Shown here: piece after piece, positions 2,776 through 59,198 of the stretch
How positions within the stretch are numbered: position 1 is the stretch's first letter
Layout: each line of letters opens with the position of its first letter
DNA from: a virus
Direction: 5' to 3' (one strand)
IMG/VR virus record: IMGVR_UViG_3300025875_000001
Location: 70,814-134,813 of that record
Length of the DNA: 64,000 bases
Position numbers and translations under genes: made by a program
Notes under the pieces: generated by a model
Told to the model about the DNA's origin: nothing
Databases searched by the model: none
What the model saw: the letters and a program-made list of their open reading frames with translations, nothing else

Positions 2776-2844
2776 GCGGGTCGCTAGGAATCGAACCTAG
2801 ATACATCGTGGCTTGATTAAGCTTTACCATTAAGCTACGACCCT
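2776..2844 (-). pseudogene. Degenerate short tRNA (possible Gly GCC remnant)
   Basis: Intact D arm GCTT-AATGGTA-AAGC and T arm CTAGG-TTCGATT-CCTAG; anticodon stem only 3 bp; ~69 nt. Confidence 0.55.
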
Positions 2845-24760: not shown

Positions 24761-24767
24761 TATCTCT

Positions 24768-25082
24768 TGTAGGTGGGGAGAATCGAACTCCCGTCTTGAT
24801 ATCTTCTACAATAAAAATTAATTACAGCCATTCCGTATCCCCGGCGGGTCTTACTGGCAGTGCGGGTGTTACCAACTAGCTTACGCTAGGACTTGCAAGT
24901 ATTCTGTTCCAAGGTCCTCGCTACCCGGTAACTTAAAGAGTTACAAATGAATATTCGGCACAAAGTGCTTCATATTCTGCATCAATGTTGTCTGCATTTA
25001 TATTTTTGATCTGTTTTAAGTCTCTTATCAAAGACTGGCTGCGTTCTATAGTTTCATATACCAATCGATACCGGTCACCCAC
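24768..25082 (-). ncRNA. ssrA: tmRNA; tag ADNIDAEYEALCAEYSFVTL* (24995-24933)
   Basis: Acceptor GTGGGTG/CACCTAC-A with G3:U70; 5' GACCGGTATCGA D-like loop; T arm GGGAG-TTCGATT-CTCCC; P2 pairings TTGGTAT/ATATCAA and GCAGCC/GGCTGT; resume context ATAAAT-GCA. Confidence 0.88.
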
Positions 25083-33037: not shown

Positions 33038-34478
33038 TATGACTAGCTTAGCAGGCCAAGCTAGCGCCTGTCAACCACCCCAAGATAGTTGATCGGTTGT
33101 CTCAATATTTGTGCTGAAAGTCCAAAGTTGATTTAAGTCTTCAATTTCAAGCTCATTGAACCGAGCTTCTGGCCTAGCGTCTTTATCTAAAAGAGCTTGT
33201 ATCCATACTTCATTAGCGTCAAACCTATTTGAAGTTACGTAAATGATTTCCCAGCGGTTAAAATTGTATACATCTATTGTATAAAGCTTGGTCAAATTGG
33301 AATCCTCCTTGTACACTCCAACCTATCTCCTAGGTCGTTTATTTCTCCTACGTCATCTGAGAGGGTTACAGCTAGCAACGTGTCACACTGTCCACCCGGC
33401 ATCTCGGGCGTAGCATTGTCTGCAAACAAACATCCATGTACGCAATTGTATTGTTCTATGTGAGCTATGGCATCTGCTGCATATTCAAACCGGCCATCAC
33501 GTCTAGCTTTATACATCTTCTAAGCTCCTCACTATCTTATTATCAATTAACCTGCACACTACGGGCAATAAAGTCATAGCGGCTACCACCAAAAGCCCGG
33601 CCCAAAACGGCCAGCCGCTAACTACCGCAGCAGCAGTCCACATAACAAATAGAATAAATGACAGTAATGCAACATTTTTCCACGCTATTGGTGTGAATTC
33701 AGCCATGTTATTGCATCCTCTACTATGTCTTCTGCTATATATAAAATCGTAAATGCTGTATCTAGTGCTACTTGTTTAATTGCTGCTAGCATTACTCCGA
33801 CACCTTTCCTATGGCATAAGATTGCCACGTATTGCCATGATTGACGTAGTGATCGATTAGGTCACCGTTCCATATAGTCATAGCTGGCTTATCTCCTGGT
33901 AGGCCACAATTGTCACAATTTGAATAAGCTTTGCTATTACCACCATCTGAGTCCGGCCAAACCACATATAAATATCCATTCCAGCAACCACTACATCTTC
34001 TACGCTCTACTCTACCCATTGACCTCTCCTATGGATAAGGCCGGGAACAATTAAGCTCCCGGCCTCCCCCGTTTATCTCGTCTTACGCCTCATCTTATTT
34101 ACGTACCTAGTCTTTTTTAAATTCAAAACATTGCACTCGGCGCATCTTATATACATGTAAGTAGGGTCCCAAAAATAATCTGACTCTACCTGAATCCATT
34201 CGTGCTTGTGGTCAACACGCTTACGAACTTTCTTAGCTCGCTTTTTGTATGGTAGTTCTTCTGGGCCAGCGCCGTGATCCTGTCTGAAATTTTTACGGAT
34301 AAGTGGGTGTTCGTCCCATGTTTGCCTGCGTCCTCGCATGTTTAGGTTCCTTTCTTTGGCTCGTTAGAGCTTTTTATTTACCTAAACATGACCACTCCTA
34401 TTCATAGTTGCTCTCCGTAGTTAAGTCCGTGAGGGGAAGCCTAAGCCCGCAAGTCTCACGGCGCAGTGTTTAATTGGG

Positions 34479-34553
34479 AGCGGGATACCGGAATCAAACC
34501 GGCTTCTTTCCTGGCTTATGAGACCTGGCAAGATTATCAACCTTCCACCCGCA
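34479..34553 (-). tRNA. tRNA-Met(CAT), fMet-like, irregular acceptor and T loop
   Basis: CAGGT-CTCATAA-GCCAG; GCGGG/CCCGC acceptor core; T loop TTTGATT. Confidence 0.65.
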
Positions 34554-34555
34554 AG

Positions 34556-34625
34556 TAGCCCCACGGAGTTATGCTCTCACGCTAGATCGGGATATGAATC
34601 CGAGCCGGTCACTAGACCTGGGGCC
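34556..34625 (-). tRNA. tRNA-Met/Ile2(CAT) with non-canonical T loop
   Basis: Acceptor GGCCCCA/TGGGGCT-A; TCGGA-TTCATAT-CCCGA; T loop AGCATAA. Confidence 0.6.
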
Positions 34626-34629
34626 TTAA

Positions 34630-35380
34630 TTTTGGAAAGGGCCTAGAATTAACCCCCTCCGTGACAGGCTTTAGTTGGAGTATTATTTCCCAACCTTTCC
34701 GCGTAGTCCCCCACGCACCTGCCGCGCCTAGTAAGTATAGCCTACTACTCTTTATGTCACAAGCTTACTCCACTTCGTTCGATTCAGATAAGAGCCGCTA
34801 AACCCCTACCCTGCACTACTTGAACATGAACACCCTTGGCCTTGCGAGCTTCCAGGTGGCCGGATTCCAAATTGGTCCGGCATTAAGGCGCTTTTGCTTT
34901 GTGACAGGAGAAGTCTTTTGCTTTTATGTATTTGCATTCATAGGCAATGGGACTCAGTCCCGGAGGGTTTGGTAAGAGATGTGCTTCTCCGCGAAGTTCC
35001 GTATCCTTTTGGGATATAGAATGCTTCACACCTCAATATCTTTCGGCTTGCGGGCCTACTCAAATCGTAATCCATTTCACGAACCCGCCGATCCGTTACT
35101 TTGTAGTACATGGATAACGCCCTTGATTGCGGTCTCGGACTATTTACCCTTACTAATCGAACATGATGCTTATGGTGGCGAACCACTACCCCTTTTACCC
35201 TGCCGGGTGACTACAGTCATTCGACCATTCGCCGGGCACTCACATCGCTACAACGCTCATCACATTGCTTAACGACTAGCTTTGTATGGTTGTACCTATT
35301 GCTAGGCGACAAGCAACCAGCCTGCCTTTCTATACGTTACCGTATATTATCGTGCCATACCACGTTCACGTTTTTAATTA
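34630..35380 (-). ncRNA. Large (~750 nt) structured ncRNA, GOLLD-like
   Basis: No credible ORF; many hairpins with UUCG/GNRA-type loops; long-range GAGGTGTG/CACATCTC stem; flanked by tRNAs. Confidence 0.7.
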
Positions 35381-35385
35381 TAAAG

Positions 35386-35457
35386 TAGGTCCCCGGAGAA
35401 TCGAACTCCGAATTTACGGGTAAGAACCGCAAGTTATAACCGTTTAACTAGAGACCC
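35386..35457 (-). tRNA. tRNA-Lys(CTT)
   Basis: TGCGG-TTCTTAC-CCGTA. Confidence 0.88.
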
Positions 35458-35562
35458 ATTGTTCGATAACCTATATGCGGTGTTCGGGCGGATAGCCAAC
35501 CGCCGTTCTTTCGAGAGCACGCTGACCATATAGATTATCTGACTGAGTTGCAACTCAGTTTG

Positions 35563-49667: not shown

Positions 49668-50561
49668 TTAAAAGTTACCTGGCGCTACCTGGAAGCATAC
49701 TAGACCAATGCTACGCCATGCGTCAACTACCTGCTGCCTGTCATCTAGCACAAACTGCACATCGTAATTGTCCCTGACGTATTCATTGAATAGTTCTAGC
49801 TTGACGATACTATCTTTCCTTTGGTCCCCGGTCTTTCGCATATACACCTTATCCCAGGGAACATCATTATCATTAAGCCAGTTTTGGGAATCAATACTAC
49901 TTATATCGTCCCGGCCGCTCATGATTATAATCATATACCCGGCTTCGTCTGCCCAACGAACAACCTCGGCAACATGATCAATTAGCTCATCGTCATATAC
50001 CTTAGTAAAATCATAGAACGAACGATGACCATTATTACGTGCCAGGGTACCATCAAGATCTACCAGAATAGCCTTCTTTGTACCCGGCTTTGCTACATAA
50101 GGTGCATGCGTTGGGTCGGGCTCAGGATATAGGTCAATCTCATTCAATGGATTCCGAACAAGATCTTGATGCTGCTTCTTGATTACTTCTTCTGGAACGA
50201 GCCTACCACCCATAGAGTGCCTTGTCCATACCCGGCCAATTGCCTTATTGACATCTATATCTACCTGCTTAACATCAAAAGTAGCATTGTGCTCTAGAGC
50301 AATAGCTGCAAAGTGACGCAAATACTTAGGACGGATGTTAGTGTTGTCAACAACCACATTGCACCCGGCCTTTAGCAGAGCATGGACACTAGCGTCTTCA
50401 ATAACACTAACTACTGTCTCATCAACACTAGCATAGTCCTTGAATACGGCTTCACGAATGTTGTCACGGCTTACCACCGCCCAACCTTCACGCTTTAGCT
50501 GCTCGACATATGTGCTCTTTCCACTACCACTAATACCACGCATACATAATAGCTTACTCAT
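49668..50561 (-). CDS. pseT: Polynucleotide 5'-kinase/3'-phosphatase (T4 PseT-like Pnkp)
   Basis: GISGSGKST P-loop, SRDNIR, VVDNTN; HAD motif ILVDLDGT; VLDDRQQVVDAWRSIGLVCFQVA. Confidence 0.92.
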   Translation of the reverse strand: MSKLLCMRGISGSGKSTYVEQLKREGWAVVSRDNIREAVFKDYASVDETVVSVIEDASVHALLKAGCNVVVDNTNIRPKYLRHFAAIALEHNATFDVKQVDIDVNKAIGRVWTRHSMGGRLVPEEVIKKQHQDLVRNPLNEIDLYPEPDPTHAPYVAKPGTKKAILVDLDGTLARNNGHRSFYDFTKVYDDELIDHVAEVVRWADEAGYMIIIMSGRDDISSIDSQNWLNDNDVPWDKVYMRKTGDQRKDSIVKLELFNEYVRDNYDVQFVLDDRQQVVDAWRSIGLVCFQVAPGNF

Positions 50562-51122: not shown

Positions 51123-51758
51123 TCAGAAATCCCTTGTCTTTAGCTTAAACATTAGTCGCTTACCAGCATTGTTTGTTAGCTCTACTGGTGACTTAGCAAT
51201 AATGCCCTCAGCCTGTACCGGCCGAATTGCGAATGTGCTACCAAAGCCATCTCGGCATGCAGCTATAATGGCATCAAGATCATACATACCTAAATTTGGC
51301 GCTGTATCAATTTGAAGTTCAGCCACACATGCATAAAAGTCAGCAGGTGACAGCCACAAATCATTTGCACGCACATCGAACGCCCTGAACTCTACATCAT
51401 TGGAGTAGTTTCCACCACCATTGATCTTAGGACCATATGACTCACCGTAAACTGTTAGCGAATCCAGACCAAACCTGTCCATAAGATCATTAGCTGCCGG
51501 ATGGATTGCATGAACTGTATCGATAAGGCTATTTTCTACCGGCGATGGGAGGTTAGCATTAGCTGTGCGCCCACCAAATGACCATACAACATCACCATCT
51601 TCATAGCCAAAACGAATCCACGTAGAAGTGCCGTCAATTTTTTCTGTAACGCTCCATCTATCTAGTAGTGCAAACTCCGGTCGTGTAAATTCGCCGGGTA
51701 TAATCTTAAAATTACTATCACGCTTAAACAGGGTATCTATTTTATTATAGTAGTCCAT
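51123..51758 (-). CDS. Rnl2-family RNA ligase (adenylyltransferase domain)
   Basis: TEKIDGT (motif I), YGESYG, FRAFDV, EGIIAK, MFKLKT. Confidence 0.82.
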
Positions 51759-52000
51759 CTTTACCTCTCTTGTTTTGGGCCTGCTCACTGGCTGTAGCCC
51801 ATCTACAATTATCTGGAGTATAGTCGCCATTTACATCTATTCTATCTAACGTCCTATCCTCCGGCCTTACGCCCATATCCTCTAAGAAATTAACGAACTC
51901 AGACCAACGGTCGCATACCCTAATGCCTCTGCCACCGTAATGTTTATAGTTTTTATTTAGCTGATTAGAGCACCTAGCTCGCATCGCAATCCAAGACCAC
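51745..52000 (-). pseudogene. 3' half of an HNH-type endonuclease
   Basis: SWIAMRARC...[17 protein letters not shown]...[20 protein letters not shown]; no N-terminus. Confidence 0.75.
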
Positions 52001-52510
52001 CAGCCCGGCAAAATCGCCGTAATCAAGTACAATTCTGTTACTAGGGTAAATTATCTCTGCTAGAAAAGTGTAACCAGCATATAGCTTAAATAACTCTAAA
52101 GAGTCATTGTGGTTCTCTCTAATGTGCTGGGTAGCCCATTCGGCTTGACTGGAATGAAATGATCCTCTAGTAGATACATGCACTTGATCATCGTACACGA
52201 AGATAATACCAAGTGACCCATCGGCTTTATCTGTTACCTCAACAAGATCGTCAAAACCAATGTAAGGCGTTTGCGCTTCACCTAGATTCCAAAATTTACT
52301 TAGCGGCCTAGCAATAACATTACCTGTCAGTTGCTCATAGATAAGCCCACGACATTGAGTCGTCACATCATTCCAACACTTTTTGAATGCGGCCAAATCT
52401 GAATAATTTGCAATAGTCAGCGGATGACCCTCATGGCTACGCAGAGTAACCATCTTGTCTGTTTGCATTTGACGGAATAGATCACCATCAAACAGATCAC
52501 TAATTTTCAT
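51974..52510 (-). pseudogene. 5' half of a T4 Rnl1-family RNA ligase
   Basis: [50 protein letters not shown]; ends at ~178 aa without the later motifs. Confidence 0.8.
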
Positions 52511-52633
52511 TGCGGCTCCCGCCAATAGTATGGATAAGTGTAAGGGCGGACGTATACGCTGAGACGACTAATTTTATCCTACGCAACGCAATGTTACATG
52601 ACAGGACGCCTACCCCTGCACTACCCTTACCTG

Positions 52634-55284: not shown

Positions 55285-55285
55285 G

Positions 55286-55357
55286 TGTGCCCACTCGGAT
55301 TCGAACCGAGATGTTAGATTTTAGAGGTCCATCAGTTACCTTTACTGACATAGGCGC
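55286..55357 (-). tRNA. tRNA with CUA anticodon (amber suppressor; Pyl-like loop)
   Basis: TGGAC-CTCTAAA-ATCTA; D stem TCAGT/ACTGA; T arm CTCGG-TTCGAAT-CCGAG. Confidence 0.75.
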
Positions 55358-56639: not shown

Positions 56640-59198
56640 CTAAATCATAGTTATTCTACTAAAATAGTCTGAAAGATCATCCGGCATCTCCATCGTTGGA
56701 GGCTTAATAATTACATTACCCGGCCTTTCATCTAGACTATTTCTATTCTCCTTTTTTATATCTTGTATCGTTCTTACTTCTACTATATTTGACTGTTCCG
56801 GCCTTGCCGTTGACAACGCATTGAATATAGCACCACATGTAGCATCTGCCAAGTCTTTAGTGCCTGATCTTGGATGGTCAACTTTATCGTCATTCGTGAT
56901 TCTGAGCTGTAGCAACTCTTTTTTTAACAGCTCTATATCTGGCATAATGACTCTATGCTCACCGACAGCACCGGCCATATCTTGATAATGTTTCTTGGCC
57001 ACTGAAAGCTTTTCGGTAGGAATGCCGAATTTCTCTAAATAATTACGCATATCATCAGATTCCCACTGATCGAAAGTTACTTTCTTGATATTAAATCCCC
57101 GGCGATACAAAGAAACAATATACTCCCTTACCTCAGTGAAGTCAACAGACTTTTCCTTGGTGGGCGTCCACCATCTTACAGCATCAACATACACTACAGG
57201 TGCGGCATCTGTAAAGGTGTTGACAATCTTCATAGACTGCCAGCTCTCTACGTGAGCCAAGCTCACAGCACAGTTATCATGCTTACGAGCCAAATCAACA
57301 TGGATATAATATTCTTTAGTGTCATCTGGTCTAAAGAAATACTGAAAAGTCCCGTCTTCACTTACTCCATTACGCCCGATCATGGCATCATCAATCTTTT
57401 GCCTATCCTTAAAGAAGGCGTCAATTGCCTCGGCTGGCTGACAGGCAAAACGTCCTGTAGCATCTGGCTTATTACGATAAAAAGCGGTTACATATTCTTG
57501 ATTGGTTATCTTTTTGGTTGGATTTACTTCCCATGTTGGCCTCCGCAAAGCAAATACGTATGGAATCTTATAAGAAAGAATATCATCTTCTTCCCACTCA
57601 ATGATTACTCTATTACTTTCGCTATCAGGCAAATCTGGATTCAGAGGGACAGCCACTCTTTTAGGAGTAGTAACCTTTTCTTCGATTACAGAAGCATAGT
57701 GAGTACTAATGAAATCACCCTTGTAACGGGGGAATGACAACAATACAACTTTCCCATAAATACCAAAACGAGAGTCAACAGACGCTCTATACATATTGTA
57801 AACTGCGTCGGCGGTCTTCTTTGATTCTGACGTAGACTCGGTGGCAAATCCTGAAATCTCATCAAGTACCACCATTATAGTGTTATAACCCTCCCAAGCT
57901 TCACGCTCTGAATGACCAGAATATAAATTAATATTTTTATCAAACTTAACCTCTCCAGACTGAGCTGGTTCACCATTATCTTTAGCATCATATTTGCCCT
58001 TGAAATAATTACTTTTCTTCAAAAGCCTAACGACACCTTTAAAAAATACATTCTTAGCTTGATCTGAGTTAATAGCAATATTAATAATATCGAAAGAGTC
58101 ACCACTTGGTTTATCAAAGTACTTGGCTGGGTTTTTTAGACACATAAGTAAATAAACCAAATAAGCACAACTAAAGGTTGAAAGCATATCTTTACCAGAT
58201 TGATGACTTATTCTTAGATTACCTATATAGTTATGTGTTTCTGGTTGTGTAAGAGTCCAATAATCTCCTTCACCCTTCCGGCGAATCCAGGTGATTTTAT
58301 CCCAAAATAGACCATCTTTTACTTTACCTTTTCTCTTAGTTAATATCCAAGTATACTTGTTTGGGTAAGTAATTTTATATGGCTGGCCAACTCTTGCCCA
58401 TGCATGCTGAATATCTTGCCCCAATTGATATGAATTAGTTACAAACCGTTCACCCTCAATACAAACTTTACGCAAGAACATTTCAAGCACTCTATTATCA
58501 GACTTCCACAAGTCTGCTGGTATTGCTGCATTAGGATCCGTTGAATCAAGAGTATCTACTATTTCTTTTAGACGCATGCTTGAAATGTTAATTGGATTAA
58601 CAACATCGAATCCAATAGCAGTAGCTATTAAGTCACCCTCTTTTAGCTCCACCGCTGGAACCCATCTACCCCAATTTACTTTATTTTCAAACTTCTTCCA
58701 AGGCATTGCATAATATTGATGACCAACATATACAGTCTCTCTAGTACCTGAAATAGTCTCTACCTCTATCATTTGCCCTCGGCCTTCGTGGAAAGCTTCT
58801 GTGGCATATTGTGGAGTAAGGCTTAAGTCTTCATTCATGCCGACAACTAATGTATCAGACTTAATTGAATCTAGACGTTGCCAAGCCCCGGTATTTGCAT
58901 TAAACACCGGGGTCTCGGGAGCATGACAACCTTTACCAAACTGCAAAATTACTTCTGTCTCAGTTTGATCCCAACGCTTTTCCGCCTCCATAGGAGAGAG
59001 ATATTCGTATAGAGTTTCTTTTCTATAAATTTGTGTAGAACGCAACACGGCTTCACGTTGATATGGACTTAACCTTACATCTGGCTCATTAAGATACCTT
59101 TCGTCAGCAATAAAGGTATCAATATCAACCGGCTTTTCTGCAAGATCGCCGTCATCTAATGAATTTAGGATACCGTCAAAATCAAACAGGGACGACAA
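56640..59198 (-). CDS. terL: Terminase large subunit (intein-containing)
   Basis: Walker A GKG|SGKD, Walker B VVLDEISGF, nuclease motif YIHVDLA, C-terminal DHPRSGTKDLADA. Confidence 0.92.
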   Translation of the reverse strand: MSSLFDFDGILNSLDDGDLAEKPVDIDTFIADERYLNEPDVRLSPYQREAVLRSTQIYRKETLYEYLSPMEAEKRWDQTETEVILQFGKGCHAPETPVFNANTGAWQRLDSIKSDTLVVGMNEDLSLTPQYATEAFHEGRGQMIEVETISGTRETVYVGHQYYAMPWKKFENKVNWGRWVPAVELKEGDLIATAIGFDVVNPINISSMRLKEIVDTLDSTDPNAAIPADLWKSDNRVLEMFLRKVCIEGERFVTNSYQLGQDIQHAWARVGQPYKITYPNKYTWILTKRKGKVKDGLFWDKITWIRRKGEGDYWTLTQPETHNYIGNLRISHQSGKDMLSTFSCAYLVYLLMCLKNPAKYFDKPSGDSFDIINIAINSDQAKNVFFKGVVRLLKKSNYFKGKYDAKDNGEPAQSGEVKFDKNINLYSGHSEREAWEGYNTIMVVLDEISGFATESTSESKKTADAVYNMYRASVDSRFGIYGKVVLLSFPRYKGDFISTHYASVIEEKVTTPKRVAVPLNPDLPDSESNRVIIEWEEDDILSYKIPYVFALRRPTWEVNPTKKITNQEYVTAFYRNKPDATGRFACQPAEAIDAFFKDRQKIDDAMIGRNGVSEDGTFQYFFRPDDTKEYYIHVDLARKHDNCAVSLAHVESWQSMKIVNTFTDAAPVVYVDAVRWWTPTKEKSVDFTEVREYIVSLYRRGFNIKKVTFDQWESDDMRNYLEKFGIPTEKLSVAKKHYQDMAGAVGEHRVIMPDIELLKKELLQLRITNDDKVDHPRSGTKDLADATCGAIFNALSTARPEQSNIVEVRTIQDIKKENRNSLDERPGNVIIKPPTMEMPDDLSDYFSRITMI
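58200..58928 (-). mobile_element. 243-aa intein (Cys1...His-Gln) with degenerate endonuclease region
   Basis: CHAPETPV start, ELKEGDLIA, THNYIGNLRISHQ end followed by Ser; inserted in the P-loop. Confidence 0.85.

Follow-up and report, generated by a model that had tools for sequence, protein, structure and literature searches.

The locus and its gene neighbourhood

The window analysed here is a stretch of 64,000 nucleotides, bases 70814-134813 of the IMG/VR virus IMGVR_UViG_3300025875_000001, whose genome of 134,813 bp has terminal repeats, is rated complete and has a GC content of 42%. On the minus strand of the window, from about 35365 to 34638, lies what is very probably a full-length gene for a GOLLD RNA. 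GOLLD RNAs are among the largest non-coding RNAs of bacteria and phages and form cages that consist of RNA only. The gene is preceded by a tRNA-Lys(CUU) gene (35385..35457, minus strand), found by ARAGORN and scored with 54.3 bits by the Rfam tRNA model. An AU-rich spacer of 19 nt (35366..35384, minus strand), read directly from the sequence, separates this tRNA from the first GOLLD helix, and two tRNA-like elements with a CAU anticodon follow the gene.

We scanned the whole window against Rfam 15 with cmscan. The GOLLD model (Rfam: RF02032) matched 34638-35036 on the minus strand over its positions 1-416 of 416 and without truncation, with 179.8 bits compared to a gathering score of 150 and an E-value of 6.4e-49, and the same match was returned by a search of the whole genome. 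It is the single large-RNA match in the whole window. That the match is an artefact of the covariance model is not plausible at an E-value of 6e-49. ROOL, OLE and HEARO gave no match at their gathering scores in the whole window, nor at E <= 1 in the region 34250-35480, where a permissive Rfam scan found, beyond GOLLD, only the tRNA-Lys and one match at chance level. An earlier note on this DNA, made from the letters of the sequence, had named GOLLD as the family and had proposed a check with the models of GOLLD, ROOL, OLE and HEARO; the full-length match above the curated cut-off bears the assignment out and the other three models stay without a match. The locus combines this score above the cut-off with a complete 3' domain, a structured 5' domain and a phage location beside tRNAs. 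The strand, for which the earlier note gave none, is minus. The RNA measures 728 nt (35365-34638), or up to 747 nt when the spacer is counted, and about 730-750 nt overall, close to the ~750 nt proposed earlier. This agrees with the ~700-830 nt of GOLLDs in total, in which a variable but structured 5' domain of ~300-450 nt sits ahead of the 3' domain.

The surroundings of the gene are rich in functions of RNA metabolism, as the earlier note had described them. ARAGORN finds 33 tRNA genes in the virus, all on the same strand as GOLLD. Also on this strand are a tmRNA (24767-25082, Rfam scan), a polynucleotide kinase-phosphatase (49668-50561, protein family match) and two adjacent RNA-ligase-like ORFs (51123-51830 and 51974-52525) that match PHROG 548 and PHROG 562 (T4 Rnl1-like). 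Judged from their sequences, the two ORFs may represent one ligase in two parts or a pair of separate ligases. One tRNA of the array (55285-55357, minus strand) has a CUA anticodon, is labelled 'Pyl' by ARAGORN and is of the amber-suppressor type. Another tRNA (2776-2844, minus strand) has 41 bits with Rfam and is missed by ARAGORN; its anticodon loop AAGCCAC is without the usual U33.

The best protein matches of the virus are found in large Streptomyces phages of the Stanwilliamsviridae, with 55% identity for the terminase, 33% for an rIIA-like protein and 46-47% for the polynucleotide kinase. On the basis of these three best matches, the label of actinophage given in the earlier note appears reasonable, with an actinobacterial host as a presumption. 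The terminase large subunit (56640-59198, minus strand, 852 aa) matches the Streptomyces phage terminases in two pieces that cover 72% of its length, and its residues 142-332 have a weak match to an intein splicing domain. Together, the two-piece match and the splicing-domain match suggest the insertion of an intein.

Domains and helices of the RNA

RF02032 models only the conserved 3' domain of GOLLD. In the window this domain (34638..35036, minus strand) corresponds to model positions 1-416 and is preceded by a 5' domain of 329 nt (35037..35365, minus strand), which we delimited with a profile HMM, a multiple alignment, RNAalifold and counts of base pairs.

The 3' domain starts with a hairpin with a CAAAA loop (35034-34976), located by the Rfam match and by string look-up, in which GAGGTGTG (35034-35027) stands opposite CACATCTC (34983-34976) and TATCC-CAAAA-GGATA occupies 35016-35002. 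The variable linker that follows (~34975-34925) is short, with only the small hairpin GGGAC-UGA-GUCCC (34961-34949), and unlike the linkers of several relatives (Rey, Estes and the IMG/VR locus L017) it has no embedded tRNA. The segment AAAGCAAAAG occurs twice, at 34924-34915 and 34900-34891. A nested long-range helix, UGUCACAA (34906-34899) paired with UUGUGACA (34762-34755), is the closing stem of the central multi-helix junction. Further elements are GCCGGA with TCCGGC (34881-34876 with 34864-34859), CTCGCAAGG (34848-34840), GCGTGG-GGGA-CTACGC (34716-34701) and GTTGG with TCCAAC (34694-34690 with 34679-34674).

An exact-string look-up placed all helices and motifs listed in the earlier note on the minus strand inside 34630-35380. 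Five of its helices belong to the consensus structure of the Rfam GOLLD model: GAGGUGUG with CACAUCUC, UAUCC-CAAAA-GGAUA, GCCGGA with UCCGGC, GCGUGG-GGGA-CUACGC and GUUGG with UCCAAC. The segments it had listed as typical of GOLLD, namely AAAGCAAAAG, CUCGCAAGG and AAUACUCCA..UAAAG, turned out to be conserved single-stranded or loop segments of the model. The GOLLD signature motifs present in the window are the CAAAA loop, AAAGCAAAAG, CUCGCAAGG, GAGUA and GGGAAAUAAUACUCC.

The match has weaker parts, as its 179.8 bits are the second lowest score among the eleven GOLLDs compared (range 162-226, with relatives reaching 203-226) and model positions ~216-280 align poorly. Both points, and the degenerate look of the neighbouring CAU elements, would suit a decayed and non-functional GOLLD remnant carried in the tRNA array. 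We consider such a remnant very unlikely, since the match spans the entire model and exceeds the curated cut-off, the named helices are all intact, the 5' domain retains every covarying helix of its subgroup and the virus record is rated complete, with terminal repeats.

For the study of the 5' domain, GOLLD loci were taken from IMG/VR by means of two DNA patterns and from GenBank phages. A profile of the upstream region matches end to end only in a subgroup of GOLLDs, to which the window belongs. The other members are the cluster M mycobacteriophages and Mycobacterium abscessus prophages Bongo, Reindeer, Rey, Estes, Nanosmite and prophiGD54-2, the IMG/VR loci L008, L012 and L017, and a low-GC lineage with the loci L007, L009, L010 and L011. 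With a profile HMM made from ten 5' domains, that of the window scores 164 bits with an E-value of 2e-48, which is a figure of self-consistency because it is one of the ten.

In an alignment of 13 sequences, the window and 12 other GOLLD 5' domains, RNAalifold predicts 30 pairs in six helices. The predicted partners are paired in 92.1% of the cells, compared to 37-49% after shifting the partners by 1-3 columns, and 21 pairs have double-sided changes, compared to 4-7 in the shifted controls. None of 500 column shuffles reaches any of the observed measures. In single-sequence folding, the 5' part is more stable than 99 of 100 shuffles (z = -2.45). These comparisons establish by covariation that the 5' half is a structured domain common to a subgroup of GOLLDs. 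Covariation specific to the lineage of the virus is absent because no close relative of the virus was found.

The domain begins with the hairpin CGUG-GUAUGG-CACG (35364-35351). The loop of this hairpin, GUAUGG (35360-35355), is the complement of CCAUAC at 35289-35284, and the pairing of the two covaries as GCAUGG/CCAUGC, GCAUAG/CUAUGC and GCAUGA/UCAUGC. Next come the GNRA hairpin UAUACG-GUAA-CGUAUA (35346-35331), with covariation at each of its six pairs, and GAAAGG (35330-35325), which is conserved in the alignment. Two more hairpins with GNRA or UGAC caps are among the best-supported elements of the domain. At its end, the hairpin GGC-CCGCAA-GCC (35056-35045) covaries when judged by eye, with GCC/GGC, GGU/GCC, CCU/GGG and GUC/GAC. 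In the middle of the domain the sequences vary too much for a reliable alignment, so that GUGG-UUCG-CCAC (GTGG-TTCG-CCAC in the DNA, 35186-35175) and UACU-ACAA-AGUA (TACT-ACAA-AGTA, 35108-35097) are putative hairpins read from the window sequence itself.

Searches with blastn and nhmmer gave no additional match of the 5' domain in 116-130 other GOLLD loci. A covariance model of its first 90 nt detected the module among 100 other GOLLD loci in only L137 (56 bits), L016 (23 bits) and, with weak matches, L092. As the covariance model finds the module in three of 100 loci and nhmmer in none, we regard it as one subtype among the less conserved 5' regions of GOLLD (PMC12286853).

With Rfam covering only the 3' domain, and 5' similarity lacking by blastn and nhmmer in more than 100 other GOLLD loci, one might take the GOLLD to be 34638-35036 only and the upstream 330 nt to be a separate RNA or plain spacer. 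This is highly improbable, as 12 further GOLLD loci have the 5' module immediately in front of the 3' domain and none of them shows a promoter, a terminator or a tRNA that separates the two, and the variable 5' domain is counted as part of GOLLD in the literature (PMC12286853). Stand-alone relatives also have a promoter and a terminator that bracket both domains. These low-GC relatives have no tRNAs at their flanks. A terminator upstream of the RNA in L011 and L009 precedes a promoter with an extended -10 element, TTGAAT-17-TATTAT (TATCAT in L009), which stops ~4 nt short of the 5' module, and a hairpin with a T run, again a terminator, begins ~30 nt past the Rfam 3' end. The bracketing shows that both domains form one unit of ~790 nt in these two loci.

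That the stretch encodes small proteins is hardly credible. It has only short ORFs, the longest with 97 aa (34979-35272, plus strand) and another with 82 aa (34938-35186, minus strand), and none matches a PHROG family. Although the records of Rey, Estes and other cluster M phages show 'hypothetical proteins' across the homologous 5' domain, the observed variation consists of compensatory base-pair changes and the conservation is explained by the covariance-model match.

Relatives and spread of the subtype

When the locus was compared by megablast with 50,697 phage records, only a tRNA-Arg was matched, and blastn in its distant mode returned only cluster M mycobacteriophages, with the similarity confined to the surroundings of the first hairpin in the 3' domain. 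The nearest GOLLD sequence is found in IMGVR_UViG_3300045988_187329, with 68.7% identity over the 3' domain, followed by the mycobacteriophages with ~62%. This provirus (loci L012/L136 and L137) is similar to the window in its 5' module, its dense tRNA array and its GC content of ~44%, and differs from it by two GOLLD copies and a 5' spacer of ~70 nt. The window terminase has no match in the provirus record, which is 73% complete, so the two viruses are apparently unrelated. The two GOLLD copies of the 189-kb provirus (84978-85364 and 165928-166292) are ~81 kb apart and have the same 5'-domain subtype.

RF02032 is also found in the cluster M mycobacteriophages Bongo (216 bits), PegLeg, Reindeer, Rey and Estes and in tRNA arrays of Mycobacterium. 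The cluster M GOLLDs share with the window RNA the 5'-domain subtype, a tRNA array near a tmRNA, a tRNA on both sides and a length of ~750 nt, whereas the identity drops to the mentioned ~62% in the 3' domain and the 5' domain has no similarity at the level of blastn. Downstream of the RNA there is a normal tRNA in the cluster M phages instead of the degenerate CAU elements of the window. The viruses that host the RNA are unrelated, with a Stanwilliamsviridae-like virus of 42% GC on one side and Vilmaviridae of ~60% GC on the other.

GenBank records of cluster M phages are without a GOLLD annotation, for example that of Bongo (L005 1193-1939). In several of them a 'hypothetical protein' CDS lies over the GOLLD 5' domain, for example gene 107 of Rey (L131 467-610) and gene 105 of Estes (L132 483-599).

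Cases of GOLLD in mycobacteria were reportedly described by Morgado et al. in 2020. Mycobacterial cases are described (PMC6582537), the cluster M GOLLDs are listed among the sequences of the published family alignment (supplement of PMC12286853), and GOLLDs have already been reported from phages, from mycobacteriophages and from the tRNA arrays of actinobacteria (PMC12286853 and its supplement, PMC6582537, PMC12990946). The RNA of the window is a new copy of a described family and leaves the knowledge of the family as a whole unchanged. What it adds is a 5'-domain subtype documented with clear covariation, whose relatives show the limits of the whole RNA from promoter to terminator, and the occurrence of GOLLD in a phage lineage whose eight tested cultured members are without it.

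These eight Stanwilliamsviridae Streptomyces phages were searched whole and GOLLD was absent from all of them, while Bongo, used as positive control, was found. A search for close relatives of the virus by way of the neighbouring thioredoxin-like gene gave one non-syntenic locus, which has no GOLLD. The absence of GOLLD from the eight cultured relatives suggests that a module of tRNA array plus GOLLD moves between groups of actinophages. From the sequence comparisons, the virus probably acquired its GOLLD by transfer of such a tRNA-array module.

Probable cage, proposed function and RNA ends

Cryo-EM has shown that GOLLDs assemble without protein into dihedral cages, a behaviour known only for the RNAs of env-38 and Streptococcus agalactiae (PMC12286853, PMC12990946). 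The env-38 GOLLD has 833 nt and forms a 14-mer, and the S. agalactiae GOLLD has 700 nt and forms a 12-mer; the 3' domain by itself gives mostly a 10-mer (PMC12286853; PMC12990946). The 5' domains are the caps and fix the number of chains, and the linker faces inward (PMC12286853, PMC12990946). Both env-38 (PDB: 9MEE) and the S. agalactiae GOLLD (PDB: 9L0R) have the two-domain layout with a variable linker that is also seen in the window (PMC12286853, PMC12990946). As members of the same family they possess the same conserved 3' domain, which forms the ring of the cage. The 5' domain of the window, with ~330 nt, is ~90 nt shorter than that of env-38 (420 nt) and near that of S. agalactiae (~325 nt); it has no detectable sequence similarity to most other GOLLD 5' domains, and the comparison with env-38 is one of length. 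ROOL, likewise a large RNA carried by phages, occurs near tRNA islands and also builds a cage without protein (PMC12286853); it is distinguished by an unrelated sequence and fold and by having no Rfam match in the window.

Family membership leads us to infer a similar cage for the 728-nt RNA. By analogy with the other GOLLD structures, its two domains would fold separately and the RNA would self-assemble into a closed dihedral cage of ~12-14 chains. In such a cage the 3' domains would form the ring and the 5' domains the caps, and the short variable linker would face inward.

According to work cited in PMC12286853, the expression of GOLLD rises during phage lysis and binding to ribosomes has been reported. 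For the window, support of translation or of the tRNA supply in infection appears the most likely role because GOLLD is surrounded by tRNAs, a tmRNA, a polynucleotide kinase gene and RNA ligase genes, though to assign this role to GOLLD is speculation. The earlier note suggested a role in protecting or organising translation, which exists in print as a hypothesis. A role in the upkeep of tRNAs and translation is the leading published idea, and the compact island of GOLLD, tRNAs, tmRNA, polynucleotide kinase and RNA ligase genes agrees with it.

The 150 nt past GOLLD can be drawn as two cloverleaves in the minimum free energy (MFE) fold, yet this fold is no better than that of shuffled sequences (z 0.02). 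The first element (34556..34625, minus strand) has a cloverleaf in the MFE fold with an acceptor stem of 7 bp, the anticodon loop UUCAUAU (CAU), a D loop of 4 nt and the non-canonical T loop AGCAUAA. Its acceptor stem and anticodon arm are good. It is missed by ARAGORN even at a threshold of 60% and by the Rfam tRNA model, and a search for homologues came back empty. The second element (34477..34552, minus strand) is a divergent tRNA-Met(CAU) that ARAGORN reports at a relaxed threshold only. Its acceptor stem contains two mismatches and its anticodon stem an A-A mismatch, the anticodon loop reads CUCAUAA and the T loop UUUGAUU, and its best Rfam match, within the tRNA clan, has 15 bits. The 3' two-thirds of this element (56 nt) are 85.7% identical to an annotated tRNA-Met of Enterobacter phage KKP_3711, and an exact pattern made from the element has 0 matches in IMG/VR. 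In 34477-34625 no canonical tRNA was found by ARAGORN at default settings or with Rfam RF00005, neither at the gathering score nor with the tRNA model at E <= 10. The RNA had been placed in the earlier note between tRNA-Lys(CTT) and two CAT tRNAs, of which the tRNA-Lys stands and the CAT pair is missed by the default finders. Elsewhere in the 134.8-kb genome, with its 33 tRNAs, the search brought up no further CAU tRNA.

It is conceivable, if rather unlikely, that the CAU elements do not decode and are part of the GOLLD unit, either as handles for RNase P and RNase Z or as cargo that is tethered to or recruited by the cage. If so, GOLLD and the adjoining tRNA mimics would be one functional module.

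The flanks suggest how the full-length GOLLD RNA may be made. The tRNA-Lys(CUU) lies 20 nt before the first helix, a distance made up of the 19-nt spacer and 1 nt, and the first tRNA-like fold begins 12 nt past the Rfam 3' end. The GOLLD RNA would be transcribed together with the phage tRNA array on the same strand, and its ends would be set by the enzymes that process the tRNA-Lys and the downstream tRNA-like element, with cuts of the RNase P and RNase Z type. Alternatively, the 5' end may come from a weak promoter within the spacer, which contains a perfect TATAAT (35382-35377). This box is without a good -35 box and is not among the calls of the promoter scan, and a separate promoter at this place is a possibility only.

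Similar arrangements are found in relatives. The order in Bongo is tRNA-Asn, 0 nt, GOLLD, 10 nt and tRNA-Arg, in L012 it is tRNA-Leu, ~70 nt, GOLLD, 7 nt and tRNA-Glu, and in L017 GOLLD is followed after 11 nt by tRNA-Phe. In L137 a tRNA-Leu directly abuts the 5' module. In a Reindeer-like locus, the tRNA after GOLLD is the tRNA-Arg of Bongo minus 11 nt (L091 3792-3872 compared to L013 7203-7276). The deletion removes the anticodon arm, and the acceptor, D and T arms are kept, which agrees with the flanking tRNA acting as a processing handle. A detectable tRNA immediately downstream is present in only 6 of 118 other IMG/VR GOLLD loci, so ends defined by tRNAs are a feature of a subset and not of the whole GOLLD family.

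The stretch just upstream of GOLLD in the Reindeer-like locus is occupied by tRNA fragments, a piece of a T arm and the 5' half of a tRNA-Asn.
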